A stretch of 64,000 bases of DNA, from NCBI GenBank assembly GCA_018829965.1, contig JAHJTG010000005.1:49558-113557 (forward strand). Direction: 5' to 3'. Of the stretch, positions 832 to 60,750 are shown in pieces. Within the stretch, counting starts at the first letter, position 1, and every line of letters begins with the position of its first letter. The DNA comes from Patescibacteria group bacterium (GTDB lineage: Bacteria; Patescibacteriota; Minisyncoccia; Minisyncoccales; Staskawiczbacteraceae). The notes under the pieces were generated by a model. The model ran no database searches. It saw nothing but the letters and a program-made list of their open reading frames with translations, and had not been told where the DNA came from. Both the position numbers and the translations under genes were made by a program.

Positions 832-1066
832 CAACAATAAATAAATCCTAAATCCGAAATCCTAAATCCTAAATAAATCCAAATATAAAATGTTAAAAAT
901 CCAAAACGTTTTAATTGTTTGAATTTAGAGTTTTGAAATTATTTAGAGTTTAGATATAGAGACTATAAATAATCTATATAATTGGTTCGCTCGCTCGGAA
1001 TAAACAAGCAAGCTTCTTTATTCCTTGCTCGTTGCCAATTATTAGAATTTAGAGTTTAAAAATATT

Positions 1067-6050: not shown

Positions 6051-6551
6051 GTGAATCTAAATAAAGCTTTTATTTTAGGAAATGTAACCCGCACCCCAGA
6101 GGCAAAAGCTTTGCCAAGCGGATTATCAGTAGTAAATTTTGGTGTAGCTACAAATAGATTTTATACAGATAAAACTGGCACAAAAAAACAGGATGCCGAG
6201 TTTCATAATGTTGTTGCTTTCGGGAAATTAGCCGACATCTGCTCTAGTTATTTAAATAAAGGTTCTCTGGTACTAATTGAAGGAAGAATCCAAACAAGGA
6301 ATTGGCTTAATTCTTCTGGTGTTAAGCAATATAGAACAGAAATTGTTGCTAGCAATATACAGCTAGCTCCGAAATCAATGTCAGGCCCTACTTCTGGGTC
6401 AATGCCAGCATCAGGTATCGGAGAAAAAAACGAGGAAATTCCAATTATTGAAGAAAATTATATACCGCCGTCTGTAGATAATTTAAATCAGCCACAATCA
6501 GCGGAATTACCAGATGAGCAGGAAATAGATGTTAAGGATATCCCGTTCTAA
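6051..6551 (+). CDS. ssb: single-stranded DNA-binding protein
   Basis: OB-fold N-terminus (NKAFILGNVTRTPE) and the acidic C-terminal tail ending DIPF. The tracked ORF begins at a TTG at 6018; a GTG at 6051 is the more likely start. Confidence 0.85.
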   Translation: MNLNKAFILGNVTRTPEAKALPSGLSVVNFGVATNRFYTDKTGTKKQDAEFHNVVAFGKLADICSSYLNKGSLVLIEGRIQTRNWLNSSGVKQYRTEIVASNIQLAPKSMSGPTSGSMPASGIGEKNEEIPIIEENYIPPSVDNLNQPQSAELPDEQEIDVKDIPF

Positions 6552-6669
6552 AATACTAAATCCGAAATTCTAAATCCTAAACAAACCCCAAATTCTAAAT
6601 CACAAAATCAAAACGTGTTTAGAATTTAGATATTAGAATTTAGAATTTCTTTTATTAAATAAAAGTGTT

Positions 6670-8282: not shown

Positions 8283-10487
8283 CTACACTTTTTCCCATTC
8301 ATCGCTCTCATCATTTCCCTCCATATCACCAGTCCCCTCTGGCGGCTGCTCAATCGTAATATCAGTTTTTTCACCAAAAACTTCTCTTGACTTTGCTCCA
8401 TCTGCGGGCCCCACTATTCCTCTTTCTTCCAACGTATCAATAAGTCGGGCTGCCCTAGCGTATCCGATTTTTAGTCTTCTTTGTAAAAATGATGCGGAGG
8501 CTTTTTTGGTTTCTAAAATTATACGCTTACTCTCTTCAAACAAAGGGTCATTCTGGTCAAAAACCATTTTACCAGCTTCTCTTTCTTCCGAAGCCTCTAA
8601 TTGATCCTGTAAACTCTGCGCAAGAAATGATGCCGTAGAATTATCTGTTTTCCCATTTTGTTTCCCAATAAATTCAGCAACTTTTCTAACATCTTCCTCT
8701 GGGACATAAGGTCCCTGAAGCCTTCTTGGCCTTATGGATTTAGCAGAAACAAAAAGCATATCTCCCGAACCCAATAATTTTTCTGCGCCACCCATATCTA
8801 AAACAGTTCTTGAATCAATTTGCGAAGCAACTTGGAAAGTTGCTCTTGAAGAAACATTAGCCTTAATTAAACCCGTTATAACCTCTACTGAAGGCCTTTG
8901 AGTGGCTAAAACTAAGTGTATGCCCGTAGCTCTTGCCATTTGGGCTAATCTTACAACTCCTGCCTCTATTTCCCTACCCTTTGATGCCATTAAATCTGCC
9001 AGCTCGTCAATAATTAAAACTATATATGGTAAAGTACGGCCTTCGGCGATTACTATTTTGTTTTTATTATAGGTATCAAGATTACGAGTTGGCACTTCAG
9101 AGAATACCTCAAATCTTCTTTCCATTTCTTTAACCAACCAGTTTAAGGCGTTTATGGTTTTATTGGCATCATATATAACCGGACATAGAAGGTGCGGCAG
9201 ATGATTATAGTGTTGGAATTCAACTCGTTTAGGGTCAACCATAATTATCCTCAAGTCTTTCGGAGAATTTTTGTATAATAAACTAAGAATTAAACTATTC
9301 AAGAATATTGTTTTTCCTGTGCCAGTGGACCCTGCCACCAAAAGATGGGGCATTTCTGCCATATCAGCATATGTTGCGATGCCAGATACATTACGGCCTA
9401 AAACAAATAAAAGCGGAGATATTGAATTTTGAAAAGAGGGGTCGGCGATTAAATTTCTTAAAGAAACAATTGACCTTACTTTGTTAGGCACCTCAATGCC
9501 AACCAATGATTTCCCAGGTATCGGAGCTTCAATCCTGATTGGATGAGCAGCCAAAGCAAGAGACAAATTATTAGTTAAAGTAGTAATTTTAGAAAGCTTT
9601 ACCCCTTCTGCCGGCTTGAAAGCATATTGGGTAACGGTAGGGCCCACATTAGCTTCTACCATTTCAACTGAAATACCGAAATTTTCTAAAGTTTTTTGGA
9701 TTATTATTGAATTTTGCTTTATGTTTCCGCTGGTTGGACTTCCCTCATTTTTAGAAAGCAAATCAATCGGCGGCAAAATATACTGCTCTTTATTTTTTGA
9801 TAATTTTTTATTATTTGTTTTTAGTTCTTCGTTTTTAGCGTTTTTAAATAAAGATATCTTCGGTTGAGCATCTGGGCTTACTTTATTTTCTTCTTCAATC
9901 TCTTTTATTTTAAGCGATGTTAGTTTTTTGAATTTCGTAATTCTTGAAAGCAGAGATGGTTTCTCTTCTTTCTCTTCTTCTGATATTTTTTTAAGATGCC
10001 AAAGAGATTGAAAAAATATTACAAGGCCAATAACAATTACTGCGCCAAAAACTATATTAGCTACTAATAAACCGAACGAACTAACTATTATTTGCGCCAT
10101 CAAATACCCCAACCAACCGCCCTCTTTTAGGTTTAGATTTTGAGAACCTAAAACTCCTGCTATTCCAAAAATTAAAACAAAAATACCCAAAAATGTAGGT
10201 ATTAATTTTCCTCTATGCTTTGGTTTCAAAAATATTAGACCGCTTAAAAGAAAAAGAAAGGGTATAGTAAATACTGTCTGGCCGATTAGAAATTTAGCTC
10301 CTTTTAAAAATAACTCACCACCCCTGCCTGCCTTATCTAAAAAGCTCAGACTGACAATTACTGCCACTAAAAACATTATAGTGGCTTTAATCCACCTTTT
10401 GGTCCGAGAATTTAAAAGAGGAGCTTTTATTTTTTCCTCTTTTTTCTGTAATTTTTGGTTGTTTTTATTCTTTTTATCCTTAGCCAT
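8283..10487 (-). CDS. ftsK: DNA translocase FtsK/SpoIIIE
   Basis: 734 aa with N-terminal TM segments and a motor domain carrying Walker A GSTGTGKT. Confidence 0.9.
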   Translation of the reverse strand: MAKDKKNKNNQKLQKKEEKIKAPLLNSRTKRWIKATIMFLVAVIVSLSFLDKAGRGGELFLKGAKFLIGQTVFTIPFLFLLSGLIFLKPKHRGKLIPTFLGIFVLIFGIAGVLGSQNLNLKEGGWLGYLMAQIIVSSFGLLVANIVFGAVIVIGLVIFFQSLWHLKKISEEEKEEKPSLLSRITKFKKLTSLKIKEIEEENKVSPDAQPKISLFKNAKNEELKTNNKKLSKNKEQYILPPIDLLSKNEGSPTSGNIKQNSIIIQKTLENFGISVEMVEANVGPTVTQYAFKPAEGVKLSKITTLTNNLSLALAAHPIRIEAPIPGKSLVGIEVPNKVRSIVSLRNLIADPSFQNSISPLLFVLGRNVSGIATYADMAEMPHLLVAGSTGTGKTIFLNSLILSLLYKNSPKDLRIIMVDPKRVEFQHYNHLPHLLCPVIYDANKTINALNWLVKEMERRFEVFSEVPTRNLDTYNKNKIVIAEGRTLPYIVLIIDELADLMASKGREIEAGVVRLAQMARATGIHLVLATQRPSVEVITGLIKANVSSRATFQVASQIDSRTVLDMGGAEKLLGSGDMLFVSAKSIRPRRLQGPYVPEEDVRKVAEFIGKQNGKTDNSTASFLAQSLQDQLEASEEREAGKMVFDQNDPLFEESKRIILETKKASASFLQRRLKIGYARAARLIDTLEERGIVGPADGAKSREVFGEKTDITIEQPPEGTGDMEGNDESDEWEKV

Positions 10488-14672: not shown

Positions 14673-14718
14673 GGGATTATTATTTATTATTTAGGGTTTA
14701 GTATTTAGGGTTTAGGGT

Positions 14719-17700
14719 TTAGGGTTTATGGTCTCTACGAATTTTTTCTTTAACTTCAACGCTTAAACCTATTGATTTTAATTCAGCCAACAAAAGGTTA
14801 AAAGATGCGGGAATATTTGGGTTCTTGATTGGTTCTCCTCTTAGAATTGATTCATAGGCTGATGCCCTTCCAATGACATCATCTGATTTAATAGTAAGCA
14901 TTTCTTGCAAAATATGAGCTGCACCATATCCTTCTATTGCCCAAACTTCCATTTCTCCAAATCTCTGACCGCCAAATTGAGCTTTACCCCCTAAAGGTTG
15001 TTGTGTAATCAAAGAATAAGGACCAATAGAACGGGCGTGGATTTTGTCGTCAACCATATGGATAAGTTTCATTACATACATATATCCAACAGTAATTAAT
15101 CTTGGAAAAGGCAGACCAGTTCTTCCATCGTATAAAATTGTTTGTCCTGATTCAGGGAGACCCGCTCTTTTAAGTTCTCCTTTAATATCAGCTTCGTTAG
15201 CGCCAAGCAAAGCTGGCGAAATTGCAAGATAATTTAATTTATGGGCTGCCCAGCCTAAATGGGTTTCAAGAATTTGACCCAAATTCATTCTCGATGGTAC
15301 CGAAAGAGGGCTTAAAACTATTTCAACTGGAGTACCATCGGCCAAAAATGGCATCTCTTCTTGGGGAAGAACTCTTGAAATAACTCCTTTATTGCCGTGA
15401 CGGCCGACTAATTTATCACCAACCTTAACTTTTCTTATTTCAGCAACTTCAACTTGGATTCTTTTTATTACTCCCGGCTCTAGTTTATGGCCTAAATCTC
15501 TTGAAAAGATTTTAACATTAATCACTTTACCTTTTTTGCCATGCTCCATTCTCAAAGAAGCATCTTTAACGTCTTTAGCTTTGTCCCCAAAAATTGCCCT
15601 GAGTAATCTTTCTTCTGGAGTTAATTCTGCCTCCCCTTTTGGTGAAATTTTACCGACTAAAATATCGTTTGGCCCAACTTCTGCCCCAATTCTAATTACT
15701 CCTTCTTCATCTAAGTCTTTTAATTTATCTTCGCCGACATTAGGAATATCACAAGTAGTAACTTCGGGCCCTAATTTTGTTTCTCTTACATCGCAAGTAA
15801 ATTCCTCAATATGAATAGAGGTAAAAAAATCCTCTTTAACCAATTTTTCAGAAATAATAATTGAATCTTCAAATCCTCCACCGCGCCAGCACATAAAAGC
15901 GACTAAAACATTTCTTCCCAAAGCTAGTCTTCCATTTGAGATAGAAGCCCCATCGTTTAAAACATCTCCCTTTTTAAATTGAGCTCCCTTTTTTACTGCT
16001 GGTTTTTGATGGAAGCAAGTATATTGATTCGTTCTAACAAAAGTTTGAAAATCATATTCTTCAGTTTTCTTCTGCCCGCCTATTTCTAATTCTATTTTAA
16101 TAGAATTGGCATCTACTTCTTTAACTTTTCCTGCCCCCTTTGCCACTATTGCTTGACCAGAATCTCGAGCTATATTCCTTTCAACTCCAGTGCCGATTAA
16201 AGGCGGCTCTGGAAATATCAAGGGCACTGCTTGACGCTGCATATTTGAACCCATAAGGGCCCTTGAAGCATCGTCGTTTTGCAAAAACGGAATTAAAGAA
16301 GTGGCAATACTAATGAATTGCTTTGAAGAAACATCTATATAATTTACTTTTGAAATTTCGACTTCAGCTGGTTCTCCCTTTACCCTTGCCTCAACTTTAT
16401 TTGGCAGAATTTCTGGGAGTATTTTCCCTTTTTCATCAATAGGAACCGAAGCTGGAGCAATTATATATTTTTCTTCTTCTTGGGCAGTAAGATAACAAGC
16501 TTCATCAGTCACTCTCCCATCTTTAACTTTGAAATAAGGAGTTTCAATAAAACCATATGGATTTACTCTGGCAAAAGAAGCTAAGTGCCCAACTAAACCT
16601 ACGTTAGGGCCTTCTGGCGTTTGTATCGGGCAAATTCTTCCATAATGAGATGGCTGTACGTCTCTAACCTCAAAACCCGCTCTTTCTCTTGTTAAGCCAC
16701 CAGGACCAGTTGTTGTTAATCTTCTTTTATGTTCCAACTCGGCCAATGGATTTTCATTATCCATAAATTGGGAAAACTGGGAAGAAGTATAAAATTCTTT
16801 AATAACAGCCATAAATGGTCTTGGATTTATGACTTGATTGGGCGTAATAGTCGATGGATCTAAGGTAGACATTTTATCTTTAATAATCCTTTCCATACGC
16901 ATTAAACCAACCCTTAGCCTATTTTGTAAAAGTTCGGCCATTGTCCTTACTCTTCTATTTCCCAAATGGTCTACCTGGTCAGGAGTTGCATTCGGGTCAT
17001 TATTCAATCTGATAATTTCTTTTATGACTTCGGACAAATCTTCGATTTTTAAAGTCCTATCTTCTTTAGTGACTTCTTTGTCTACATTTGCATCAGTTAT
17101 GCGGGCAGGTTTTTTTGCCGGCGCAATATCCGGGAGCCTTTGCCATGTTTTCCAACGGCCTACTTTAGACAAATCATATCTGTCAAAATTAAAAAACATA
17201 TTAAAAATCAAATCTTGAGCAGTGTCGGGAGTAACTAAATCTCCAGGCCTCAATCTTCTATAAATTTCTACCAATGCTTCTTTTTGGTCAGCGCAAGTTT
17301 CCCTTTTTAAAGTTTCTTGAATGTATTTAATTTCTCCGTTATCTATTTTTTCAAATTCTTTTTTAATTTTTTCTATATTTTCTAAACCCAAAGCCATCAA
17401 TAAAGTTGTTGCCGGAACTTTTCTTTTGCGGTTAATTTTAACTCCGATAAATCCCGATTCTTCTGTTTCAAATTCTAACCAAGCTCCGCGATTAGGAATT
17501 ATTTTTGCTCCAAAATGTTTTTTACCGCGAATACTTTTCGCAGTAAAAAACGCTCCGGGAGAACGAATAAGTTGAGAAATAACCACCCTTTCTACTCCGT
17601 TTAAAACAAAAGTGCCCCTTTCGGTCATAAGAGGAAAATCAGCGAGAAATACTTCTTGTTCTTTTATTTCTTTGGTTTTAAGATTAACTAATTTAATTTT

Positions 17701-17970: not shown

Positions 17971-17971
17971 A

Positions 17972-18104
17972 CTCCGTTAGAAGTCCTCTACGAAAAAATT
18001 TTATTTTAAAATTTTTTCTAATCTTCGGGACAAGTTATTATTTAATATCTTCTTCTTTACCTCGATAAAAAATCTTGATTGCAATTGTCAGACTTCTAAC
18101 GGGG
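17972..18104. repeat. inverted pair of the 14-nt motif (CCGTTAGAAGTC … GACTTCTAACGGGG) flanking ~105 bp of AT-rich sequence upstream of rpoB
   Basis: Left copy at 17974-17985, right copy at 18091-18104. The interior is not conserved with the other loci. Confidence 0.5.
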
Positions 18105-18310
18105 CATATAAAACCACAAAAACCCTAAATACTTAGGGTATCTCCCGGCTCTACTTTTTAAAAAATTTGGAAGTTTTAAAAAGAGAACTATTTTTAGATA
18201 AGCAGGGTCGGGTATTTAATTTTAATTTATAATACTAACAAAAGATAAAGCACCTTTTTTTTGATACTATTCTATTATATTTATTTAAAGATTCTTGTCA
18301 ACCCCAAAGG

Positions 18311-25970: not shown

Positions 25971-26067
25971 AGGATATTTTTATTTAGAATTTAGAGTATA
26001 GAATTAAGGAGCTAAGCTCCTTTTAGGATTTTGGAATTAGAAATTAGTCATTTATTCTATTATAATT

Positions 26068-27717: not shown

Positions 27718-28446
27718 TTAACGAATTTCACAGATTTTAAAAAACGGGGATATTTCTTTTTTGACAGAAATTAACCATTCTTCGGGGTATGGCTTTATTT
27801 TTTCAAAACTGGAATCAATTGTTTTTTCCGGACGAAAGTTTTGTAAATAATATTTAACATTTGTTCCTCCTATCCATTTTGCAATTTCTAAGAAATCTTC
27901 TTTTTTATTAACAGTCGGCACCGCCGTCGTCCTGAATTCAAAGTCAATTTTCCCTTTTCTTAATATCTCAACACTTTTTTTAATCTCCTTTTCGTATTTT
28001 TGGATTTGGGATTTGGGGGTTTTTTGGGATTTAGGATTTAGGATTTGGGATTTAAACACCAAAGGGGTTTTGATATCCATCGCCACATAATCTATCAACT
28101 TCTTGTCTATTAATTTTTCTAACATTTCTGGATTTGAACCATTAGTATCTAATTTCACTAAAAAACCCATTTTTTTTATTTTCTTTATAAGCTCTGGTAA
28201 ATCTTTATTCATACTCGGCTCTCCTCCGCAGATCACAACTCCTTCTAACAATCCCTTTCTGCTTTCTAAAAAATCAAAAACTTCCTTCTCTGTTATTCTT
28301 GGTTGTTTTTTTATTTTTTCCGGTAAAACCAATTCTGGGGAATAGCACCATGGGCAAAAAAAATTGCAACCGGAAATAAAAACCGTGCAAGCTAACTTGC
28401 CCGGAAAATCAATGAGAGTATTTTTTTGTAACCCTCCAATTATCAT
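27718..28446 (-). CDS. nrdG: anaerobic ribonucleotide reductase activating protein (radical SAM)
   Basis: 242 aa with CNFFCPWC (CxxxCxxC), directly downstream of nrdD. It carries an in-frame heptamer-repeat insert (…FKSQILNPKSQKTPKSQIQK…). Confidence 0.8.
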   Translation of the reverse strand: MIIGGLQKNTLIDFPGKLACTVFISGCNFFCPWCYSPELVLPEKIKKQPRITEKEVFDFLESRKGLLEGVVICGGEPSMNKDLPELIKKIKKMGFLVKLDTNGSNPEMLEKLIDKKLIDYVAMDIKTPLVFKSQILNPKSQKTPKSQIQKYEKEIKKSVEILRKGKIDFEFRTTAVPTVNKKEDFLEIAKWIGGTNVKYYLQNFRPEKTIDSSFEKIKPYPEEWLISVKKEISPFFKICEIR

Positions 28447-28456: not shown

Positions 28457-31400
28457 TTAAATGAATTGCCCCGGTGTTATTTTATATTCCTTCCTCTCTT
28501 TATACTCCTGCTTTTTCCCTTTATGCCATTGTTGTATGGGACGGTAATATCCGACCACCCTAGAATAAACTTCGCAAGGTTGCTTAACCAGACATTTCGG
28601 ACACTCAAAATGTTCTCCATCTAAATATCCGTGAGAGGGACAAATTGAAAAAGTCGGAGTTAAAGTAACATATGGTAAATGAAATTTTTCAAAAACTTTT
28701 TTAATTAATTTTTTTGCCATTTCAGGGTCAGAAATTCTTTCTCCTAAAAATAAGTGCAAAACCGTTCCGCCTGTATATTTAGTCTGTAAATCATCTTGAA
28801 GCTTTAATGCTTCAAAAATGTCATCGGTATAATTAACGGGAAGATGAGTTGAATTAGTATAATAAGGAAGTTCTTTTGTACCAGCAGTGACAATGTCTGG
28901 ATATTTTTCTTTGTCAGTTTTTGCTTGCCTATAAGATGTTCCTTCGCCGGGAGTAGCCTCCAGATTATACATATTTCCAGTTTCTTCCTGAATTTGTACT
29001 AATTTATCTCGCATAAAATCTAAAACTTCTAAAGCAAACTTCTTACCGCGCTTTGACCCGATATCTTCTCCGAGAAAGTTTAACAAAGCCTCATTCATTC
29101 CAATCAAACCAATTGTAGAAAAATGGTTTCCGAAATATGAATCCCTCATCTTCTTAACCGAGGATAAATAATGTTTAGAATAGGGATAAAGTCCTTTTTC
29201 TATAAAGTTTTCTAAAGCTTTTCTTTTTATTTCTAAACTTTCTTTGGCTAGCTCCATAAGACGATCCAATCTGCTAAAAAAATCTTTTTTAGTTTTTGAC
29301 AAATATCCGATGCGAGGTAAATTTATTGTCACCACACCAACAGATCCGGTTAAAGGGTTAGCTCCAAAAAGCCCGCCTCCTCTCTTGTAAAGCTCCCTGT
29401 TGTCCAATCTTAATCGGCAACAATTATGCGTAATAATTCCATTTGCTAATTGAAAAATATGGCCTTTACTGCCTAACTCAAAATCATAAACATAGCCCGT
29501 ATATTTTTGTCTTTCAATTTTAACGATTTTAATACCATAAAAATCTTTATATAATTTGTATTTTAAACTTTTGCCTCTTTTAAGTTTAAAATAAGACATA
29601 AGCCAATCGGGATAATCATTCGTTAATCTTAAAGAATAGCCAATTTTTTCTATATCTCCAGTTTTATTTTTAGATTCAAAATAAGTTGCATTAACCCCTA
29701 AACTTCTCGCTAATGTCATTGTGTCTATAACAAGATTTTTATTGCCTATATGTAAAACAACTACATTTTTAACAAAACCGTCGCTTTCAATTATCCCAAC
29801 AAAAACTCCTCTTCTAAACTCAATAGAACGAGCAAATATTTTAGAATTTAACCTTTTAACTAATGAGCCGTCTCCACGTACATATTCTTTTGTTAGTTCA
29901 ACTACTGATTTGCTCGCAACCGATACTTTCACATAAGAATGATCGTCGTTCAAAAAAATTGTAGCTTTTACACCGAATCTTTTCTCAACGATAGATTTAA
30001 TAAATTTTGCAAAATGAACCTCATTTTTGTTAAAAACAAAATTTGCAGTTGCGCCATTATGAGATACCCAACCATCTCCAATATAAAGACCAATTAATCT
30101 CCCTAAATCAAAATCTCCAAGTTCTCCATTATAAGGATATTTAGCAATAGGAAATTCGTCACCAATTTTTATATCCCTACTTTCTTTAATAACAATTTTG
30201 CCACCTTTAATAACAGCTGAAGGGTGATCTAAAGTCATTTTATCAATTAATCCATTATCTAATGTTAATTTCAAAATTTCTTCATTTTCCAATTTTATCT
30301 TTATAACATCCTTTACTGGTTCAAATTTCCCATTTATAAGCACATCAATTGGGTTATCTCTTTTTATAAAATCATCTACTATCCTTCTAATTTCTGTCTT
30401 AGCAATTATACCATTTGCATTTCTATAAATAATTTGCGTAGATGGTAATTTGCACATCGAACGCGCGTCTTCCGGGTTCATATCTGATTGAATAAAATTG
30501 GAGAAGTAATTTACTCCATATTTTGCAGTTGCCTCCCACAATGGTTTTAAAACAGGGTTGTCCCAATCAAAATCTTTTGTTATAGAAACTGTTGGAATTG
30601 GGAACGTAAAAGGCTTGCCAGTAGCATCCCCTTCCATTAAGCCTTCGTAGAAAGCCCTTATAAGCATATTCATTTCTTCTTGAAATTCTCCGTATATTTC
30701 TTTTTGGGGCTTCCCGCCTACAATTACGGGCTGTTTGGCTAAAAATGACGGCGCTTTAATGTCTAAAGTTACGTTTAAAAATGGCGTTTGAAATCCAACT
30801 CGGGTCGGCACCATGCAACTGTACAAAAACTCTTGCATTGCCTGTTTTACTTGAGGATATGTTAAGCCATCATAACGAATAAAAGGAGCCAGGAGCGTAT
30901 CAAAATTAGAAACAGCGTTAGCACCTGCAGTTTCACCCTGTACGGTATAAAGGAAGTTAACTAATTGACCTAAAGCAGTTCTTAAATGTTTTGCTGGTCT
31001 ACACTCTATCTTTCCTACCACGCCTCCAAAACCTCTCATCAGTAAGTCATAAAGATCCCATCCCATACAATACGGCGCTAAAATCTCTAAATTATGAATA
31101 TGGAAATCTTCTTCAGCCGCCGCCTCTCTTATTTCCTTTGGATAGATTTTATTAAGCCAATACTTTTTTGAAATATAAGAACCGACATATTGGTTCAATC
31201 CTTGTAAAGAAAAGGTCATATTGGCATTCTCATTGACTTGCCAATCAACTTCTTGTAAGTAACTATCTATCTTTTCGCTTGATTCATCAACAGCTTTTGT
31301 CGCTTCTCTTATTTTTCTTCTTTGTTCCCTGTAAAGAATGTAAGCTTTTGCGGTTTCTACATATCCTTCCAAAATCAAAACCTCTTCAACCACATCTTGA

Positions 31401-31612
31401 ATTTGTTCTACTTGAGGAATTTCGTCTTTTTTAAAACGGCGGTTTAAAATTTGGAGAACCCTATTAGAAATCCGCCGAGATTTCGGGCCGTTACCCTCTC
31501 CGGTGGCGGTTAAAGCTTTATGGATAGCATCAGTAATCTTTATTTGGTCAAAATCCATAATCATTCCGTCCCTTTTTCTAATTTTTATAATTCGGTTTTT
31601 TATTTTCGGCAT
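28457..31612 (-). CDS. nrdD: anaerobic ribonucleoside-triphosphate reductase (class III) interrupted by an intein
   Basis: 1051 aa with an N-terminal ATP-cone, a C-terminal glycyl-radical region (RVVGYY) and a Zn ribbon (CPKCLVKQPC). A 344-aa insertion is bounded by Cys387 and …THN730/Cys731. Confidence 0.9.
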   Translation of the reverse strand: MPKIKNRIIKIRKRDGMIMDFDQIKITDAIHKALTATGEGNGPKSRRISNRVLQILNRRFKKDEIPQVEQIQDVVEEVLILEGYVETAKAYILYREQRRKIREATKAVDESSEKIDSYLQEVDWQVNENANMTFSLQGLNQYVGSYISKKYWLNKIYPKEIREAAAEEDFHIHNLEILAPYCMGWDLYDLLMRGFGGVVGKIECRPAKHLRTALGQLVNFLYTVQGETAGANAVSNFDTLLAPFIRYDGLTYPQVKQAMQEFLYSCMVPTRVGFQTPFLNVTLDIKAPSFLAKQPVIVGGKPQKEIYGEFQEEMNMLIRAFYEGLMEGDATGKPFTFPIPTVSITKDFDWDNPVLKPLWEATAKYGVNYFSNFIQSDMNPEDARSMCKLPSTQIIYRNANGIIAKTEIRRIVDDFIKRDNPIDVLINGKFEPVKDVIKIKLENEEILKLTLDNGLIDKMTLDHPSAVIKGGKIVIKESRDIKIGDEFPIAKYPYNGELGDFDLGRLIGLYIGDGWVSHNGATANFVFNKNEVHFAKFIKSIVEKRFGVKATIFLNDDHSYVKVSVASKSVVELTKEYVRGDGSLVKRLNSKIFARSIEFRRGVFVGIIESDGFVKNVVVLHIGNKNLVIDTMTLARSLGVNATYFESKNKTGDIEKIGYSLRLTNDYPDWLMSYFKLKRGKSLKYKLYKDFYGIKIVKIERQKYTGYVYDFELGSKGHIFQLANGIITHNCCRLRLDNRELYKRGGGLFGANPLTGSVGVVTINLPRIGYLSKTKKDFFSRLDRLMELAKESLEIKRKALENFIEKGLYPYSKHYLSSVKKMRDSYFGNHFSTIGLIGMNEALLNFLGEDIGSKRGKKFALEVLDFMRDKLVQIQEETGNMYNLEATPGEGTSYRQAKTDKEKYPDIVTAGTKELPYYTNSTHLPVNYTDDIFEALKLQDDLQTKYTGGTVLHLFLGERISDPEMAKKLIKKVFEKFHLPYVTLTPTFSICPSHGYLDGEHFECPKCLVKQPCEVYSRVVGYYRPIQQWHKGKKQEYKERKEYKITPGQFI
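29423..30454 (-). mobile_element. intein with a LAGLIDADG homing-endonuclease domain inside nrdD
   Basis: Starts at Cys387 (checked: codon TGC, preceded by an ATG Met) and ends with His-Asn followed by Cys (CAT-AAT-TGT). Two LAGLIDADG-like motifs: LIGLYIGDGWVS and FVGIIESDGFV. Confidence 0.8.
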
Positions 31613-31692: not shown

Positions 31693-31813
31693 GGGTCAAG
31701 TTTTCACCAATTTTTACAACAGAAATTGAATACTAATAATGACAATCGCAGGCGCTTCGCATATTATACAAACTATTATGTCTATTCTCTGCTGAAATTG
31801 GTGAAGGGTCAAG
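31693..31813. repeat. MITE-like ~121-bp element, copy 1 (terminal inverted repeats TCACCAATTT…AAATTGGTGA, flanked by GGGTCAAG)
   Basis: About 85% identical over ~120 bp to 40836-40956. Lies between the nrdD start and the ftsZ stop. Confidence 0.5.
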
Positions 31814-34716: not shown

Positions 34717-35719
34717 TTATTTACTGTCTTTAATATATAATTTTAAAATCTTATTTTTAATTTTATAAGTATTGCCGTGTTTTATTAGTCCTAAATAAGA
34801 AGCGAGGGTTTTAATGTTTAAATCTTTATTTATATTTTTAAATATTCTTCTCTTTGTAGCCGTACGAAGCACCCGATGGTCTGGAAAATTGATCCATCCC
34901 AAAAAATCAACTCCCGAAAATAAAATTTTAATGAATATTTTATCGGAATGCATAATAAGTTTTAATCTGTTTTTTAAAAAATTGTTAATTATTTCAATTA
35001 AACTTTCTATATGTTTTTTGTCTTTTGATAAAATAATAAAGTCGTCAGCATATCTAATATAGTGTTTCTCTTTTAATTTATGTTTTGCAAAATTATCAAA
35101 TTCATTCATATAAACATTAGCGAAAAGCTGCGAAGTTAAGTTTCCAAGAGGCAAACCAGTCCCTATTTTTCCTGAATTAAAACTGAATATTATCTCCTTT
35201 AAAACATTTATAACATTTTCATCTGATATGTATTTTTGTAAAATCTCCAACAATATTTGCTGATTAATACTTGCAAAAAAACTTTTTAATATCGCATTTT
35301 AAAACCCAGCAGGTTTTTGTGTTATTTTTTGAAACAATGTAGGCAAACTCTCTGAACCTATTTATTGCCCTATGCGTTCCTTTATTGTCTCTACAAGAAA
35401 AAGAATCTGGAATAAATGTCCCATTAAAAAATGGGCGCAATATGCGATATACGGCACGGTGTAAAAGACGGTCGCGGACGCTGGCTTTGTGGATTGTTCT
35501 TGTTTTTGGGTCGCTTATTTTGAAACATTGGTAGTTGCCGTGTTCGTATATATGATTTTTTAAATCATGGTGCAATGATAAAATATTATCCATTAAATAA
35601 AATGAAAACATTAGAACATCTTTTCTGTTCCTCTTTCCCCTAACAAAGGCTCTCCATGCATTTAATAAATTATCAACACTAATTATATCTTCAAATTTAT
35701 GTCTCAATTTAATCCTCAT
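34717..35719 (-). pseudogene. DGR-type reverse transcriptase (DGR-1) split by a +1 frameshift in a T7 homopolymer
   Basis: Two ORFs (35264-35719, 151 aa; 34717-35253, 178 aa) together align along the full length of the intact RT at 53541-54533. The break is at …CDIKKFF where this copy has AAAAAGTTTTTTT (7 T) and the intact copy has 6 T. Deleting one T restores FFASI…. Carries the IGNLTSQ and YIRYADDF motifs. Confidence 0.75.
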
Positions 35720-36085
35720 AATAATTTTTTAAACCTCGCCAACAACCAATTTAGTTTGAGTATAATTCAAAAATTAACTAATACCTATAAAGTATGGTAT
35801 GAATATTTACCTGACTTTCCTAAAGATTCAAAATATACCCTTGGCGCTAAGGTTGATTCTTTATTTTTAGAAGTAATTGAAGAAATAATAAAAGCGAGCA
35901 GTTCAGACAAGACAGAGAAACTAATTTTTCTTAAAACCGGTTCTGCTAAGTTAGATTTACTTAAATTTTTTTTGCAAATTGTTTGGGAGATAAAATCTTT
36001 AGATAATAAAAAATATATAAACCTTTCTGAAAAACTGAACGAAATTGGGAAAATGCTGGGGGGATGGCTTAAGTCGTTAAAATAA
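35699..36085 (+). CDS. avd: Avd-like four-helix-bundle accessory protein of DGR-1
   Basis: 128 aa with LPDFPKDSKYTLGAKVDSLFLEVIEEIIKA, matching the FPK-E-Y-L…NI-EG pattern of the four-helix-bundle family to which DGR Avd belongs. Nearly identical over the C-terminal 100 aa to the ORF at 54513-54896. Encoded divergently, with its 5' end overlapping the RT start. Confidence 0.55.
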   Translation: MSQFNPHNNFLNLANNQFSLSIIQKLTNTYKVWYEYLPDFPKDSKYTLGAKVDSLFLEVIEEIIKASSSDKTEKLIFLKTGSAKLDLLKFFLQIVWEIKSLDNKKYINLSEKLNEIGKMLGGWLKSLK

Positions 36086-36119
36086 AAACCACCCAAAGGG
36101 GTGGAAAAAACAAAGAGAT

Positions 36120-36256
36120 TTGCGGGGGAGGACGAAGACGAAATGATTGTTGCTATTCCAAACGTTGTCAGAATTGTCATAGTAGCTGTTGAGCCACAGA
36201 CTATTGTCATTATGCTCCACATTGAACAGCTTGAGATCGCCATCCGAGTCAGTAAT
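36120..36256 (-). repeat. DGR-1 template repeat (TR1), 137 bp
   Basis: Aligns without gaps to VR1 (36636-36772) with 10 mismatches, 9 of them at TR adenines in the minus-strand coding sense. The 3' end in coding sense is GC-rich and identical (…CGTCTTCGTCCTCCCCCGCAA). Confidence 0.8.
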
Positions 36257-36631
36257 ATATAAAGCGTCATCTATGCCACTGCCCATTGAATGCTCTCCGG
36301 GCTGAATCTTATTCGGTATCTTAATATACCTTAACACCTTATACCAAGTATCTTCATTTTTTAAAAATCAGAGATGACTCTTTTGAAAGGCGTACCCGTC
36401 AAAATTCTGCATACATCTGAAATATAGAATTCGGCCACCTGAAGCCGTAACCGCAGATTTATTAGCCTACTATCCGATTTCAATTTTAGCATATCGGGAG
36501 AAAAAAAAGAACCCCTCTTTGCATTTTTAAATTGCATGAGGGGTCTTTGTCTTTTGCGTCTCTTGAAGTTTTAAGGAACCAAGCGTTCAAAGAAGAACAA
36601 AGGTTCCAAGCTACCAAGAGTATTTTGAAGA

Positions 36632-42092: not shown

Positions 42093-42109
42093 CAAATGGA
42101 AGAAATTAA

Positions 42110-43121: not shown

Positions 43122-43313
43122 CCTTACGAATTACGAATTAAACCGAATTACGAATATACCGAAACCGATTTACGAATATACTAATCTGCGGTTTCGGATA
43201 CGAATAAATCTATTCGTAGCCGATTGCCCAAATTCGTAAATTCGTATCTGGTAATCGGTAAATTCGTACAACACTTTCTGTATATTCGTAATTCGAAAAT
43301 ATTCGTAATTCGT
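43122..43313. promoter_or_regulatory. palindromic array of TACGAAT / ATTCGTA heptamers upstream of topA
   Basis: About 5 TACGAAT in the left half and about 7 ATTCGTA in the right half, centred near 43207, plus inverted repeat CCGAAACCG/CGGTTTCGG. An ATTCGTAT x2 block also lies upstream of ssb (6005-6040). Confidence 0.4.
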
Positions 43314-45374
43314 ATGATACTTATGAATTTAATTATCGTTGAGAGTCCGGTGAAGGCAAAGACGATTGGGAGGTTTTTAGGGAGTAAATATAAAGTACTC
43401 TCTTCTTTTGGTCACGTAAGAGATCTTCCTAAAAGAAAACTAGGAGTTGATGTTGAAAACGATTTTAAGCCAGAGTATATTGTCCCTGTAAAAGCGAAAA
43501 AAACCGTTTCCGCTTTAAAAAAAGCTATTAAAAAAGACACAAAGACTATACTGGCAACGGACGAGGACCGAGAAGGAGAAGCAATCGCCTGGCATTTGAA
43601 AGAAGTTTTGGGGTTAGAAAATCCGGAAAGAATTGTTTTTCACGAAATAACAAAGTCTGCAATTGAAGAAGCTTTAAAAAATCCGAGAATAATTGATATG
43701 AATTTAGTTGATGCTCAACAAGCAAGAAGAATTTTGGACAGAATTGTAGGATATAAACTTTCTCCTTTCTTATGGAAGAAAATCACTAAAGGCCTATCTG
43801 CTGGCAGAGTGCAATCAGTTGCTGTACGATTGGTTGTTGAAAAAGAAAAAGAAATTGAAAAGTTTATCGTACAAGAATATTGGACTATTGAAGCATTGCT
43901 AAAAAAATACGGAAAAGAATTCAACGCTGTATTAATCAAAAAAGACAACGAACCAATAGAAAAACTGGATATTAACTCAAAAGCTGACGCAGAGAAAATC
44001 GTTAAAGATTTAGAGAATGCTGAATATAAGGTAATTGATGTTGAGAAAAAAGAAGTTAAGAAAAACCCCCTTCCTCCATTTACCACCAGCACCCTACAAC
44101 AAGAAGCTTGGAAACGGCTCCATTATCCAGCAAGATTTACTATGAGGATAGCTCAAGAACTTTACGAGAAAGGAAATATCACTTATCACAGAACCGATTC
44201 TGTAAAGCTTTCACAGATTTCTTTAACAGAAGCTAAAAGCTTTATTGAAGAAAAATATGGTAAAAATTATTGGGCGGGATATTTCAGACAATATGTATCA
44301 AAAGGAAAAACACAGGAAGCCCACGAAGCAATAAGACCAACTTTTGCCAAAAATACTCCAGAGAAATTAGGGTTAGAAGAAAGACATTTTAAACTTTACA
44401 ATTTAATTTGGCAAAGATTTGTTTCTTGCCAAATGGCCACTGCTATTTTTGACGCGACTAACATAGACATTGATGCAAATAATTATACATTCCACGCCAC
44501 AGGACAAACTTTAAAGTTTGATGGGTTTCTAAAAGTATATCCTATGAAATTTGAAGAAAACGAATTGCCACCCTTAAAAAAAGAAGATATTTTAGAGCTT
44601 ATAAAACTTGCTCCCCTACAACACTTTACAGAACCGCCGGCAAGATATAATGAAGCCAGTTTGATTAAGGCGCTGGAAAAGCATGGCATTGGCCGTCCAT
44701 CTACCTATGCCCCAACACTGGCTACAATCCAAGACAGAAATTATGTTGAAAAAAACGAGCAAAAAAGATTTAAACCAACTGAAGTTGGAACAATAGTTAA
44801 TAATCTTTTAGTAGAACACTTTCCTCAAATTATTGATATTGAATTCACTGCAAAATTAGAAAAAGAACTAGATCAAGTAGCTGATGGCAAAGACACGTTA
44901 ATTAAAACCTGCCGTGACTTCTATGTTCCTTTTGCAAAAAATCTTAAAGAAAAATACGAAGAAGTTTTAAAGTCAGATATAACGGATAAGCCGACTGGAA
45001 AGAAGTGTCCGAAATGCGGAACCCCCTTAGTTGAACGCCTCGGCAGATTCGGAAGATTTTATGCCTGCCCTAAATTTCCTAAATGTAAATATGCCGAATC
45101 CCTAGAAAAAGATAATTTAAATATAAAATGTCCCAAGTGTAATAAAGGGAAAATTACAGCTAAAAGAACTAAAAAGGGAAAGATATTTTACGGCTGCAAT
45201 AACTTTCCAGAGTGCGATTTTGCCCTATGGGACAAACCTATTCTTAATGATAAAAATGAACCGGAAAAATGCCCCGAATGCGGTTCTTTATTGGTCCAAA
45301 AAGGCAAAACCATAAAGTGCTCTAATAAGGAGTGCTTGTATAAAACAAAAGGGGGAGAAGATACTCCCTCCTAA
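43314..45374 (+). CDS. topA: DNA topoisomerase I with C-terminal zinc ribbons
   Basis: Toprim N-terminus MNLIIVESPVKAKTI and DEDREGEAIAWH, plus three CxxC…CxxC ribbons. Start set at the ATG at 43314 or 43323; the tracked ORF start at 43224 lies inside the repeat array. Confidence 0.9.
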   Translation: MILMNLIIVESPVKAKTIGRFLGSKYKVLSSFGHVRDLPKRKLGVDVENDFKPEYIVPVKAKKTVSALKKAIKKDTKTILATDEDREGEAIAWHLKEVLGLENPERIVFHEITKSAIEEALKNPRIIDMNLVDAQQARRILDRIVGYKLSPFLWKKITKGLSAGRVQSVAVRLVVEKEKEIEKFIVQEYWTIEALLKKYGKEFNAVLIKKDNEPIEKLDINSKADAEKIVKDLENAEYKVIDVEKKEVKKNPLPPFTTSTLQQEAWKRLHYPARFTMRIAQELYEKGNITYHRTDSVKLSQISLTEAKSFIEEKYGKNYWAGYFRQYVSKGKTQEAHEAIRPTFAKNTPEKLGLEERHFKLYNLIWQRFVSCQMATAIFDATNIDIDANNYTFHATGQTLKFDGFLKVYPMKFEENELPPLKKEDILELIKLAPLQHFTEPPARYNEASLIKALEKHGIGRPSTYAPTLATIQDRNYVEKNEQKRFKPTEVGTIVNNLLVEHFPQIIDIEFTAKLEKELDQVADGKDTLIKTCRDFYVPFAKNLKEKYEEVLKSDITDKPTGKKCPKCGTPLVERLGRFGRFYACPKFPKCKYAESLEKDNLNIKCPKCNKGKITAKRTKKGKIFYGCNNFPECDFALWDKPILNDKNEPEKCPECGSLLVQKGKTIKCSNKECLYKTKGGEDTPS

Positions 45375-47188: not shown

Positions 47189-47233
47189 CAAGATTGAAAA
47201 TTGTCTTAAACCTGCTAATATAATAAGAGTCGA

Positions 47234-51298: not shown

Positions 51299-51860
51299 GC
51301 GCTAATCCAAATGCCTTTTTATTTAATTCTAAATATTTCTCAGGAATAACTTTCTTAATAGCCCCTAAAATAGAGGTGGTTTTTAAAGGAATTAATTTCT
51401 TGTTAACCGCATAACCCAAAAGGTAAATTCCACTAACGACTTCGTTATTCAATTCTTTTTTACAAATTTCAGAAGCAGAGATTAGATATAAGTTGCTTTT
51501 TGAAATCATTTTTAACTTTCCTAAAATTTCTTCTTTCTTTAAGGATCCTGAAAACGGCAGATAATAATTATTTATTAAAAACTTAGTTTTGCTATTGGCT
51601 TGAGAAAAACCCCTTAATCCTTCCAACACCTCTAACCCAATTATTAAATCAGCCTGGCCTCTTGAAACCAGCGGAGAATAAACTTTCTCGCCGAACCTTA
51701 TATGCGTTTCAACGCTTCCACCTCTCTGTGAAAGCCCATGCAGTTCAGATGACTTTACGTCATAACCTTCAATGAAAGCAGCTTCATTAATAATTGAAAG
51801 CAAGGTAATTATTCCCTGACCACCAACCCCTCTTAGTATAAGATTAAAAGTTTTATCCAT
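51291..51860 (-). CDS. iorB: indolepyruvate/2-oxoacid:ferredoxin oxidoreductase beta (gamma-type) subunit
   Basis: 189 aa with LRGVGGQGI. Confidence 0.6.
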   Translation of the reverse strand: MDKTFNLILRGVGGQGIITLLSIINEAAFIEGYDVKSSELHGLSQRGGSVETHIRFGEKVYSPLVSRGQADLIIGLEVLEGLRGFSQANSKTKFLINNYYLPFSGSLKKEEILGKLKMISKSNLYLISASEICKKELNNEVVSGIYLLGYAVNKKLIPLKTTSILGAIKKVIPEKYLELNKKAFGLAHD

Positions 51861-53505
51861 TTTGTTTCTTTAATAGAAGAGCGCAAATTCTTCGACAAAC
51901 TATTAGCGATACTTCTTTTTTTATTAAGAATTCTTTAACTGCTTCTTCTAATTCTTTTATATTAATAGGGTCTAAAACTTTAATATGCTTTACCCCGCAA
52001 GCCTTAGCAATTTCTTCTATCTTCAATTCCTCTGTATTTTCACCCATCAATGTCTTCCCCATACCAGGATTTACTTGATGACCAGTCATAGCTGTTATTC
52101 TATTGTCTAAAACAACAATCAAAGGACTTGATTTATTATAGACAGTATTTATAAGTGCTGGAATTCCTGAATGGAAAAATGTTCCATCCCCCATAATGGA
52201 TATGACCTTTTGGTCCGTAGCCTTCCCTACGCCATGCGATATCCCCAAGCCAGCTCCCATCGAAAAAAGATAATCCTGCATATTATGAGGAGAAAGACCT
52301 GCAATCATATTACAACCGATGTCGCCACCAAAAATTGTTCCCTCAGTAGCCACTTTTTTTATTATAGGTAAAATATACCAATAAGGACAACCTTCACAAA
52401 GCCTAGCACTTCTTTTGGGTAAGTCTAAGATTTTAGACTTCTCGATTACAAATTTCTTGCCCGTTATTTTCGATAAAGCGATACAGACCTTATCTGTATC
52501 TAATTCTCCAACCGTTGGTAAAACATCTTTGCCATAAATAGTTAATTTATCTTTTGCTAAACGCACTATTTCATTTTCTAAATAAGGATCTAATTCTTCA
52601 ACAACTAGTATTTTCTTTTTGCCTTTTATAAAATCGGTAATCATTTTTTCTGGCAAAGGATAAAAAAATCCTAATTTTAAAACAGGTAGTTGTATTCCTA
52701 ATGTTTTAAGAGCTTCTAAAATATGCAGATAAGAAATACTAGAGGCGATAATGCCAATTTTATTCTTTTTGCCAATAACCTTATTAATTTTAGATTTTTC
52801 TGCAAATTGCCTGATCTTCTCAATTTTTTGCAAAAGCTCTTTTTTCATTTCTAAAACTCTCGGCGGCATTGTACAGAACTGATGCGGATTTTTTATAAAT
52901 ACGCCTTTTGGAATTTTGGATTTGGGATTTGAGATTTGTTTAGGGTTTAGGATTTGGGATTTAGAATTTATCGTAACTGGCATTTTTTGGTGAGAAACTC
53001 TCGTAGTTGTCCTTAAAATTACAGGGATATTAAATTTTTCTGATATTTCAAAGCCTAATTTTGTGAAATCACAGCATTCCTGCGGGTCTGAAGGATCTAA
53101 AATTGGTATACGGCTTAAATAAGCATATCCTCTTGAATCTTGCTCTGATTGGGCAGAACTATGACAAGAAGGATCATCTCCAATAAAAATTACCATCGGA
53201 CCTTTAGTGCCAGTATAGGCTAAAGGCAATAAGCTATCAGAGCAAACATTCACCCCAAAGCTTTTCATATTAACTAAAGTCTTTAAGCCAGAAAAACTAG
53301 CTCCGATTGCAACCTCTAGTGCAACTTTTTCGTTTGTTGACCATTCTGCATAAATACCTTTTTCCTTAGCAATATCTTTGAACCCATCTCCCACTTCAGC
53401 AGAAGGACATCCAGGATAACCGGAAACGAAATCAACGCCTGCTTCTAAGGCGCCCTGAACTATTGCTTCGTTGCCTAATAGAATCTTTTTCATATATATA
53501 AACAA
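51853..53505 (-). CDS. iorA: indolepyruvate:ferredoxin oxidoreductase alpha subunit (TPP-binding)
   Basis: 550 aa with N-terminal LLGNEAIVQGALEAGVDFVSGYPGCPSAEV and TPP motif MGDGTFFHSG. Carries an in-frame heptamer-repeat insert (…INSKSQILNPKQISNPKSKIPKG…). Confidence 0.7.
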   Translation of the reverse strand: MFIYMKKILLGNEAIVQGALEAGVDFVSGYPGCPSAEVGDGFKDIAKEKGIYAEWSTNEKVALEVAIGASFSGLKTLVNMKSFGVNVCSDSLLPLAYTGTKGPMVIFIGDDPSCHSSAQSEQDSRGYAYLSRIPILDPSDPQECCDFTKLGFEISEKFNIPVILRTTTRVSHQKMPVTINSKSQILNPKQISNPKSKIPKGVFIKNPHQFCTMPPRVLEMKKELLQKIEKIRQFAEKSKINKVIGKKNKIGIIASSISYLHILEALKTLGIQLPVLKLGFFYPLPEKMITDFIKGKKKILVVEELDPYLENEIVRLAKDKLTIYGKDVLPTVGELDTDKVCIALSKITGKKFVIEKSKILDLPKRSARLCEGCPYWYILPIIKKVATEGTIFGGDIGCNMIAGLSPHNMQDYLFSMGAGLGISHGVGKATDQKVISIMGDGTFFHSGIPALINTVYNKSSPLIVVLDNRITAMTGHQVNPGMGKTLMGENTEELKIEEIAKACGVKHIKVLDPINIKELEEAVKEFLIKKEVSLIVCRRICALLLKKQNG

Positions 53506-59916: not shown

Positions 59917-60750
59917 TTAAATATTAAATAGAGCTTTTGCGTTTTGAGTTGTTGCTTCTGCTACTTCTTCAAAGTTGATATTTTTAATCTTTGCGATTTC
60001 TTCGGCAATATATTTAACAAAAATGGGTTCGTTTCTTTCCATCTCTACTCCTATTGGTGTTAAATAAGGACAATCAGTCTCAATCAAAATTCTATTTAAA
60101 GGAGTTTTTTCTATAACTTCTTTTAAATCCAACTTGTAAATTATTCCGTTTATGCCGAGGTAAAATCCCATATCCAAATATCTTTTCGCTTGTTCCCAAC
60201 TTCCGGTGAAACAATGGACAACTCCTTTTAATTGAAAATTGAAAATTGAAAATTGAAAATTTAAGACCTCTAAAAGGTCCTCGTGCGCCATTCGGCAATG
60301 TAAAATTACCGGTAAATTTAACTCTTTAGCCAACTCTAATTGTTTCAAAAAAACTTCTTTTTGTTTTTCTTTAAATAATTCCAATTTCTTTTTTGTTTTT
60401 GGTCTGTAATAATAATCCAGGCCTATCTCTCCTATTGCCACCACCTTTTTACTTAAAGCAAGCTCTTTATATTTTTCTTTATCAAACTCCTCGCTTTTAG
60501 CCAAAAAATCCCCTTCTTCGGGATCTGTTTTTATTTTAACTAAATTAGAAGCGTAAATCGGATGCAAGCCAATTGCCGCATATACTCCTTCTTTGTATTC
60601 TTCTGCAATTTCCACCGCCCTTTTGCTCGTCTCATATTTTGACCCGACATTTATCATCCAGATATTTTCATCTAACGTTCTTTTAATAACTTCATCTAAA
60701 TCTCTTTTAAAGGCATTGAAATTAAGATGGCTGTGGGTATCTATTAACAT
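59917..60750 (-). CDS. tatD: TatD-family metal-dependent hydrolase/DNase
   Basis: 277 aa with MLIDTHSHLNF. Contains an in-frame (TGAAAAT)x4 tract at 60231-60262 encoding …FQFSIFNFQ…. Confidence 0.85.
   Translation of the reverse strand: MLIDTHSHLNFNAFKRDLDEVIKRTLDENIWMINVGSKYETSKRAVEIAEEYKEGVYAAIGLHPIYASNLVKIKTDPEEGDFLAKSEEFDKEKYKELALSKKVVAIGEIGLDYYYRPKTKKKLELFKEKQKEVFLKQLELAKELNLPVILHCRMAHEDLLEVLNFQFSIFNFQLKGVVHCFTGSWEQAKRYLDMGFYLGINGIIYKLDLKEVIEKTPLNRILIETDCPYLTPIGVEMERNEPIFVKYIAEEIAKIKNINFEEVAEATTQNAKALFNI

Follow-up and report, generated by a model that had tools for sequence, protein, structure and literature searches.

How can tandem repeats with a unit of 7 nt lie in frame inside conserved enzymes? 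Units of intragenic simple sequence repeats (SSRs) are expected to be divisible by three, as is the case for Borg repeats, and heptamers are mainly known from intergenic regions or from dedicated on/off switches. In-frame heptamer loops are thus odd, since the slip of a single 7-base unit breaks the reading frame. We studied this question for a stretch of 64,000 nt from a Patescibacteria group bacterium (contig JAHJTG010000005.1; in the following "the window"), which is AT-rich (~34% GC) and constitutes the 64 kb of the source genome covered by our analysis. On its minus strand, both an NrdG-type activase gene and iorA contain such a repeat, which an initial annotation had taken for a mobile microsatellite-like sequence. 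Given our results, the in-gene segments are probably, though far from certainly, heptanucleotide simple-sequence arrays: slippage or template switching would have seeded and homogenised them, sequence would be exchanged between them and a family of dispersed hairpins, and loops would tolerate them. That is, our best explanation considers the arrays to be a habit of the whole group of Parcubacteria-like Patescibacteria and not one-off, discrete transposon insertions.

We scanned the window with Tandem Repeats Finder (TRF), which reports period 7 within nrdG (27998-28053; 8.4 copies, 73% matches) and iorA (52907-52962; 8.4 copies, 76%), after tRNA-Leu (842-874), after ssb (6551-6581, 6618-6648) as well as between rpoC and rpoB (14690-14732), i.e., at each of these places where arrays had been annotated. 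The repeat is also present at 900-960 and 6618-6648, but these are not separate arrays as annotated: they form the inverted right arms of hairpin elements described below. The motif RGGATTTRGGATTT is matched 13 times in the window with at most one mismatch (0.34 expected), and none of 100 shuffles reaches 13. A detector for period-7 arrays of at least three units finds 9 in the window, 4 of them coding, while 100 third-order Markov simulations yield a mean of 0.17 and a maximum of 2. For periods 6, 8 and 9, the respective numbers of arrays are 1, 0 and 0. Period 7 prevails even in coding DNA, although periods 6 and 9 are frame-neutral there. That is, the window contains head-to-tail 7-nt repeats beyond what its composition lets expect, which is the property that characterises heptanucleotide long SSRs. 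The over-representation of single heptamers was found to be uninformative; the signal resides in the arrays.

The investigation was extended to loci from relatives and homologues (denoted by L numbers; 2.2 Mb altogether). They hold 117 period-7 arrays, two-thirds of which are inside long open reading frames (ORFs). An inverted partner within at most 200 nt is found for 29/117 arrays (25%) compared to 8.1 in controls, i.e., 3.6 times more often. We can exclude that the arrays are assembly artefacts: the NrdG-type protein, IorA and TatD of the window (each the sole member of its 90% cluster) are each seen on 2 contigs from several sources, and arrays at the same sites recur in many unrelated assemblies. 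The next relatives of these three proteins are from Candidatus Staskawiczbacteria and Nealsonbacteria.

The NrdG-type activase (27718..28446, minus strand) shows the Pfam domains Radical_SAM and Fer4_12 and adjoins the NrdD gene. A sequence search of the PDB matches its N-terminal radical-SAM core alone, and the best structural match of its model in a fold search is the pyruvate formate-lyase activating enzyme (3c8f, TM 0.73). IorA (51853..53505, minus strand; Pfam POR_N and TPP_enzyme_C) is followed by a POR-family (IorB-type) gene, and its true start is likely the ATG at 53493. Pfam also supports SSB, RpoB, RpoC, FtsK, TatD, RNase J and TopA, while tRNA-Leu is supported by ARAGORN.

Both arrays are in frame as annotated, and the respective translations contain VFKSQILNPKSQKTPKSQIQKYE (NrdG) and TINSKSQILNPKQISNPKSKIPKG (IorA). 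Read along the sense strand, the nrdG array (27998..28053, minus strand) is composed of 4 x AAATCCY, AAAAAACCCCC, AAATCCC and AAATCCA and encodes F131-Q149. The iorA array (52907..52966, minus strand; 60 nt) comprises 4 units, AAAC and 4 further units, which replace and lengthen a loop of ~12 aa. The two inserts had been called identical. This is incorrect, since a repeat search aligns them in register and without gaps over 80 nt with 78% identity. The common KSQILNPK-type peptide is indeed present in both, but it is the trivial outcome of reading (AAATCCY)3 in one frame: KSQILNP corresponds to AAA-TCC-CAA-ATC-CTA-AAT-CCT, i.e., to three heptamers within a single frame. Since (AAATCCT)n results in TAA within three units in every frame, every third in-gene unit must be AAATCCC. 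The common order of unit variants in nrdG and iorA is in part due to this required C.

A third in-frame array with another unit had been overlooked. It is located in TatD (ORF 59917..60750, array 60230..60261, both on the minus strand), is perfect ((TTCAATT)4.6; 100% TRF matches) and encodes NFQFSIFNFQ. An array of 3 units is also detected in frame within the N-terminal region of FtsK (10125..10145, minus strand), where its translation is SQNLNLK.

Next to the reading frame, we considered the position of the inserts within the proteins based on AlphaFold models. The NrdG model shows a mean predicted local distance difference test (pLDDT) score of 88.9, while residues 132-143, located between the strand 120-124 and the helix 148-163, are below 50. 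For IorA, pLDDT is below 50 at residues 179-192. Both inserts are therefore predicted to be low-confidence loops of otherwise good models. This agrees with the annotated tolerance as surface loops as far as the placement is concerned; their harmlessness is assumed.

We then asked how old the inserts are. Among 134 homologous bacterial and archaeal NrdG loci, the respective loop is in most cases 31 aa long and of the form APxEKY..G... About 9/134 loci have an insert of period 7, in most cases flanked by APL(G) and KY; the window's array is found between APL and KY. Of the 120 closest NrdG proteins, about half show array-type peptides. The annotation had assumed a lineage-specific insertion into a loop. 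The segment is in fact extra compared to the family norm and within a loop, but it is neither fresh nor confined to this lineage: this site holds peptides of the KSQI(L/P/R)NPKSQ type in orthologues with 65-80% identity, peptides of the NFQFSIS type in others, and nothing in still others. The observation that had been named as a refutation of the annotated insertion, the same peptide in orthologues, is thus made in part. Since orthologues bear varied arrays or none at this place, the NrdG site is an old, recurrent hotspot. In a loop-masked neighbour-joining tree of NrdG, the array types are interspersed with array-less sequences.

The NrdG arrays differ in unit while keeping their layout. The loops of the window, L082 and L083 are of equal length (41 aa) with units AAATCCY, AAAATCC and AATTTTC, and share 4 units, an irregular centre of 11 nt and 2-3 units that end in the Lys-Tyr codons AAAATAC. 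Some units form a series of single-nucleotide steps, namely AAATCCC (KSQIPNP), AATTCCC (NSQFPIP), AATTTCC (NFQFPIS) and AATTTTC (NFQFSIF), and hybrid arrays such as KSQIQISNFQ and KSQIPNPKSQFSI are observed as well. Judged from these sequences, both the series and the hybrids are what mutation together with homogenisation within arrays would be expected to produce, while selection on the peptide would be unable to yield them. Most in-register NrdG arrays abut the ancestral AAAATAC; those of L150 and L028 are located elsewhere. In L084, the right half of the array is (AAAATAC)5. The closest relative of the window's NrdG (L081; 80% identity) carries a GC-rich block of ~33-35 nt at the phase break (net gain of 33 nt, 11 aa), and other palindromes are found at the same phase break in L024 and L106.

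Further observations concern NrdG loops and their surroundings. In L028 (Gottesmanbacteria), two NrdG loops carry arrays (10407-10433 and 10556-10588) in opposite orientations (GKDIGYRVKGT, LYPKPSTLNPKFK), such that the second loop, which precedes KYYLQNF, is an insertion site too. L083 shows an extra PIGA within this second loop before KYYLQNF. On a metagenome contig (L135), an array of TAACTGA, i.e., the heptamer of Beggiatoaceae and cyanobacteria, is found at 9925-9977 just upstream of an NrdG homologue.

The insert of IorA is different in age. Here, the annotated lineage specificity is confirmed: among 120 homologues (68-100% identity), the 23-aa segment is found in the window's protein only, while the other 119 show ~12 aa. 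The nearest array-less relative (L168) holds the seed AAAAAATCCAAAAAAGG at this site (GCT-AAAAAATCC-AAAAAAGG), such that its Lys-Ser-Lys (AAA-TCC-AAA) already represents a proto-unit. In a separate lineage (L169), (GAAATCC)3 is found at the same spot, i.e., 3 units compared to 8 in the window, such that L169 expanded the IorA seed independently. IorA loops accept varied inserts in these genomes, since L168 IorA (1975-3681) shows further lineage-specific, non-periodic insertions (LPEGNRGSPTALPSG near residue 45, TPAQSG and PKGTPNP).

For TatD, loops from five lineages (the window and L164-L167) agree in register and length while using the units AATTTTC, AATTCTY, AATACTM, AACTATA and AAAGAAC. 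Most of 120 TatD homologues have a loop of ~10 aa, often with a tripeptide that recurs at i and i+7, and the homologue P0279 exceeds this by exactly 7 aa, i.e., by 3 units.

Outside of genes, the same heptamers are the building blocks of long hairpins. The element after tRNA-Leu (838..960, plus strand) consists of a left arm of 4 x AAATCCN, AAAT and AAATCCA, the loop AAAATCCAAAACGT and a right arm of TTTAGAG-type units. The fold of region 833-1066 has an energy of -47.4 kcal/mol (z = -5.7). A second element starts from the ssb stop codon (6547..6652, plus strand). Its left arm is made of 4 units, AAAC and AAACCCC, its right arm of TTTAGAA units followed by a T-rich run, and the fold of 6545-6665 (-21.7 kcal/mol, z = -6.8) is not matched in stability by any of 200 shuffles. 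Both elements are 81% alike over ~125 nt including their non-periodic parts (the repeat search pairs the second one with 843-944). They agree in the order of their unit variants, in a phase break of +4 nt that follows unit four, and in the motif AAAATC(C)AAAACGT of the loop. At 25975..26050 (minus strand), alignment and fold reveal degenerate arrays around a GC palindrome (AAGGAGC-TAA-GCTCCTT, 26006-26022) at the position of the other copies' phase break. One architecture is shared by the four long copies within the window, and the nrdG and iorA arrays follow the left-arm layout of 4 units, a break and 3-4 units. An Rfam scan did not assign the hairpins to any family, and the gathering score was reached by the tRNA only.

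Such elements are dispersed beyond the window. In L127, separate loci have copies that are identical over ~85 nt and occur in either orientation. The NrdG gene of L150 (44% identical protein) contains a whole two-armed AAATCCG element, which is translated in frame at a different position of the NrdG loop, and a second copy is located just upstream; both share the AAAC-AAA break and the right-arm motif GATATTAGAA with the window element. Thus, a dispersed sequence family exists, and complete elements can enter coding DNA.

Given these observations, we propose the following course of events. Replication slippage or short-range template switching would seed arrays within A-rich Lys/Ser/Asn/Pro codons of exposed loops, and such codons at the respective sites (AAAATAC in NrdG, AAA-TCC-AAA in IorA) would explain the hotspots. 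In coding DNA, only frame-preserving outcomes would survive, i.e., three-unit steps (21 nt = 7 aa) or compensated indels, and units that result in in-frame stops would be purged as well. Repeated gain and loss would keep the units of an array alike, such that an orthologous array holds its place and rough length while its units change together. In addition, the arrays would exchange sequence with the genome's dominant dispersed hairpin family, whose arms are made of the same heptamers, and the resemblance of the nrdG and iorA layout to intergenic left arms would result from this proposed exchange. The encoded peptides would be passengers that are tolerated as disordered loops, while the two-armed intergenic copies would form long hairpins at gene ends, which probably act as terminators or 3'-end structures. 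We infer slippage in 21-nt steps, array exchange, neutrality of the peptides and the terminator role from the compared sequences and models. Units are closer to each other within a locus or genome (mean distance 2.23) than between them (2.53; permutation p = 0.0015). A genome-wide homogenisation towards one unit was rejected, since TatD and NrdG differ in unit in the window, and likewise on the L083 contig.

Several points weigh against this explanation. Slippage and its step size are inferred rather than observed, the sharing of units within genomes is a modest effect, and a neighbour-joining tree of a 240-aa protein is of low resolution. The loop lengths of NrdG homologues take many values and not only multiples of 7 aa, such that other indels contribute to loop length. 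The length of the TatD array is constant across lineages with different units, which is not obvious from random expansion and contraction and may mean that loop length, or else a property of the nucleic acid, is under selection. Low pLDDT may partly result from a weak alignment signal instead of true disorder. Harmlessness is assumed for the NrdG loop, which follows a barrel strand on the SAM- (S-adenosylmethionine) and substrate-binding face of the radical-SAM fold. Finally, the IorA array has imperfections and the family architecture in spite of its young age, to which the import of a ready-made segment fits better than fresh local slippage, and the case of L150 demonstrates that coding DNA is accessible to complete elements.

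This leads to explanations that put the hairpins first. One would be a hitherto undescribed class of dispersed, heptamer-armed hairpins in Parcubacteria-type Patescibacteria that spread by microhomology-guided template switching into A-rich codons and continuously rewrite surface loops of housekeeping enzymes; each array would then be a latent frameshift switch, given the unit length of 7 nt. We consider this rather unlikely. If true, the arrays could serve as genome-wide contingency sites in organisms of minimal regulatory capacity.

Another such explanation relates to Rickettsia palindromic elements (RPEs), which were reportedly described by Ogata et al. in 2000 as dispersed elements with copies in intergenic regions as well as in-frame copies in conserved but mutually unrelated proteins, where they are said to be surface-exposed. 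The nrdG and iorA segments would accordingly be left-arm copies of the hairpin element that entered by transposition or templated insertion and were kept in frame within loops. In the window, the element is in fact common to intergenic DNA and unrelated genes (two genes, two intergenic elements), and the whole translated hairpin in L150 NrdG with its second copy upstream is a direct parallel. The identical copies in L127, the 81% similarity of the intergenic copies and the presence of their 4 units and AAAC/AAACCCC break in the in-gene arrays point in the same direction. So do the GC-rich palindromes exactly at the break (L081, L024, L106 and 26006-26022 in the window) and the IorA insert, which is unique to this genome but imperfect and of family architecture. 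For this young insert, pure RPE-like transposition is a serious rival.

As an account of the arrays in general, it is nevertheless unlikely. In NrdG and TatD, the arrays are old, and lineages that differ in unit carry them at orthologous sites; the TatD unit AATTTTC differs from the dominant AAATCCY. Seeds precede the arrays in array-less relatives, and L169 expanded one independently. The nrdG, iorA and tatD copies of the window have one orientation only and lack the inverted arm, such that a whole palindrome inside a gene is found in L150 only. Inspection of the in-gene copies identified neither terminal inverted repeats nor target-site duplications, where no search for a transposase or RAYT was made. 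Compared to RPEs, which are 100-150 bp long and not composed of short tandem units, the single-armed in-gene copies of the window show local seeding and concerted evolution. With regard to the annotated mobile microsatellite-like sequence, the dispersed family is thus real, while the age of the NrdG array, the A-rich local seeds and the single arms call for a revision of this annotation for the in-gene copies. There is likewise no evidence for the idea of insertion/excision footprints with 7-bp target duplications, and we know of no transposon family with such footprints.

Given the points raised against each, we consider selection for a nucleic-acid motif, a neuO-like switch and a function at the protein level to be less likely. 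A selected motif could be a G-quadruplex (G4) on the template strand or an unstructured, G-free but C-containing RNA that is bound every 7 nt (Rho-like, S1 or cold shock proteins). All three in-gene arrays have zero G on their sense strand, the AAATCC strand is always the sense strand in the window, and the heptamer periodicity survives unit changes in orthologous arrays. Furthermore, the opposite strand provides four GGG tracts at 14690-14732 and 27998-28053, comparable to the four-unit preference of GGGAATC (PMC4692102), and three at 52907-52966. However, A-rich sense units would equally result from selection for codons that suit a loop (K, N, S, Q, I, P), and arrays of AATTTTC, AACTATA or AAAGAAC cannot form G4s, such that orthologous arrays with AT-only or G-less units reject G4 as a general explanation. 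The strict rule that the G-poor strand is the sense strand, and with it the Rho/rut-like reading, held in the window but failed over the 75 in-ORF arrays of all loci (43 G-poor vs. 32 G-rich), and the L028 gene has arrays in both orientations. We consider this explanation very unlikely.

In the E. coli K1 prophage CUS-3, neuO contains a coding variable number tandem repeat of AAGACTC, where three units encode one RLKTQDS heptad and the gain or loss of one copy is most common (PMC3046976). Correspondingly, slippage by single units could reversibly frameshift nrdG, tatD or iorA and create population heterogeneity, for which the perfect TatD array (4.6 copies, 100%) would be a candidate. As in the neuO repeat region (poly-psi), three coding heptanucleotide units yield a 7-aa peptide repeat within an unstructured segment (PMC3046976). 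But while neuO has 2-93 perfect N-terminal copies and is a proven on/off switch, the arrays studied here are short (4-8 units) and mostly imperfect within internal loops. The 73-76% matches in nrdG and iorA suppress slippage, and the hosts are housekeeping enzymes without surface or variable functions. All sampled homologues of NrdG, IorA and TatD are in frame, and no variants are on record given that each protein is alone in its 90% cluster (2 contigs). We thus find the switch hardly credible for these genes. Functional peptide modules selected at the protein level are extremely unlikely: the TatD loop length is well conserved (~10 aa) and 41 aa recurs in several NrdG proteins, but the loop sequences are hypervariable and follow the DNA periodicity instead of residue conservation, many close homologues do without an insert, and the models give the segments no structure.

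The preferred explanation, i.e., slippage-born arrays that exchange with hairpins, can be related to known repeat systems. Heptamers are the most abundant class of long SSRs in many prokaryotes, for which polymerase slippage was proposed (Mrazek 2007 as cited in PMC4679880; also PMC4692102). Named examples are the cyanobacterial short tandemly repeated repetitive (STRR) sequences, GGGAATC of Xanthomonas and GGGGAYT of Nostoc (PMC4692102), as well as TAACTGA, which was described in Beggiatoaceae and cyanobacteria and is now and then found within ORFs, namely at the ends of the proteins (PMC4679880). The arrays studied here resemble these in their tandem 7-nt units of typically ~4 copies with a genome-specific dominant unit, their location, which is mostly in the spacers of genes with the same orientation, at stop codons or shortly before a start, the stop codons that some units provide in all frames, and occasional in-ORF copies (LSVISYQ in the case of TAACTGA). 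They differ by phylum and units, and many are located mid-way in conserved housekeeping enzymes instead of protein ends or hypothetical ORFs. Furthermore, coding arrays are retained at orthologous sites of different lineages while their units change in concert, intergenic arrays pair as arms of dispersed hairpins, and G4 potential is restricted to some units.

Borg tandem repeats add disordered regions to proteins with units divisible by three only (PMC9879509). Like our arrays, they start from A-rich seeds, turn over rapidly, arose independently at many sites and add disordered segments when located in genes (PMC9879509), whereas our repeats have units of 7 nt and are in some cases old. Within the open-access literature searched, we found no description of heptamer arrays in Patescibacteria, Parcubacteria or the candidate phyla radiation (CPR), of heptamer-armed hairpins or of concerted orthologous coding heptamer arrays. 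The arrays provide a natural system for three problems: what lets repeats with a non-triplet unit survive where the frame must be kept, in which way sequence passes between repeats and small palindromic elements, and by what route old proteins acquire new disordered loops in reduced patescibacterial genomes. In practice, such loops can lead to errors in alignments and phylogenies of CPR proteins and in the placement of their domain boundaries.

The window contains further heptamer-related features. The array that fills the rpoB-rpoC spacer (14683..14732, minus strand) is (AAACCCT)n with 6.1 copies and 86% matches according to TRF, and includes the last codons of rpoB (...DHKP-TAA) with its stop codon (14719-14721), while rpoC starts at 14672. 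This start is 46 nt after the end of rpoB without a recognisable Shine-Dalgarno sequence, and the gene from 25970 likewise follows array units with no obvious one. A family of another heptamer (TTACGAA) is found at 43124..43314 (plus strand) with inverted arms at 43125-43181 and 43258-43314 (57 nt, 81% complementary), which precede the called topA start or extend across it. The true topA start may be downstream of this hairpin, since the Toprim domain begins only at residue 36 and the called start is TTG. A second, unrelated intergenic hairpin motif (CCCCGTTAGAAGTC...GACTTCTAACGGGG) occurs at ~7950-7990, 17971-18110, 42105-42125, 47114-47190 and 47980-48040 and may represent a family of terminators or REP-like (repetitive extragenic palindromic) sequences.

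Other repeats are longer. A segmental duplication of ~1.8 kb (34742-36480 vs. 53557-55373; 77-88% identity) covers several genes and a long non-coding stretch adjoining iorA. Internal duplications relate 36120-36256 to 36636-36772 and 55006-55136 to 55508-55638, with non-coding parts that have no Rfam match. In the NrdD gene next to nrdG (28457-31612, minus strand), the NRDD domain is split by an intein, which includes a homing-endonuclease domain of the LAGLIDADG type (Pfam Intein_splicing and LAGLIDADG_3). An intein is also found in the NrdD of L083, and free-standing LAGLIDADG genes in L164 and L169. Upstream of nrdD, a non-coding block of 103 nt (31711-31813) recurs at 40855-40957 (89%) in the intergenic region 40676-41531. 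It matches no Rfam family at the gathering score and could be a shared leader or riboswitch-like element. Finally, a block of 83 nt is found upstream of two consecutive minus-strand genes (61896-61978 and 62481-62563; 83%), and tandem repeats of period 11 and period 14 (GGTTTTAAAAAGG-like) are located nearby at 61948-62005, which may mark a shared promoter or operator region.

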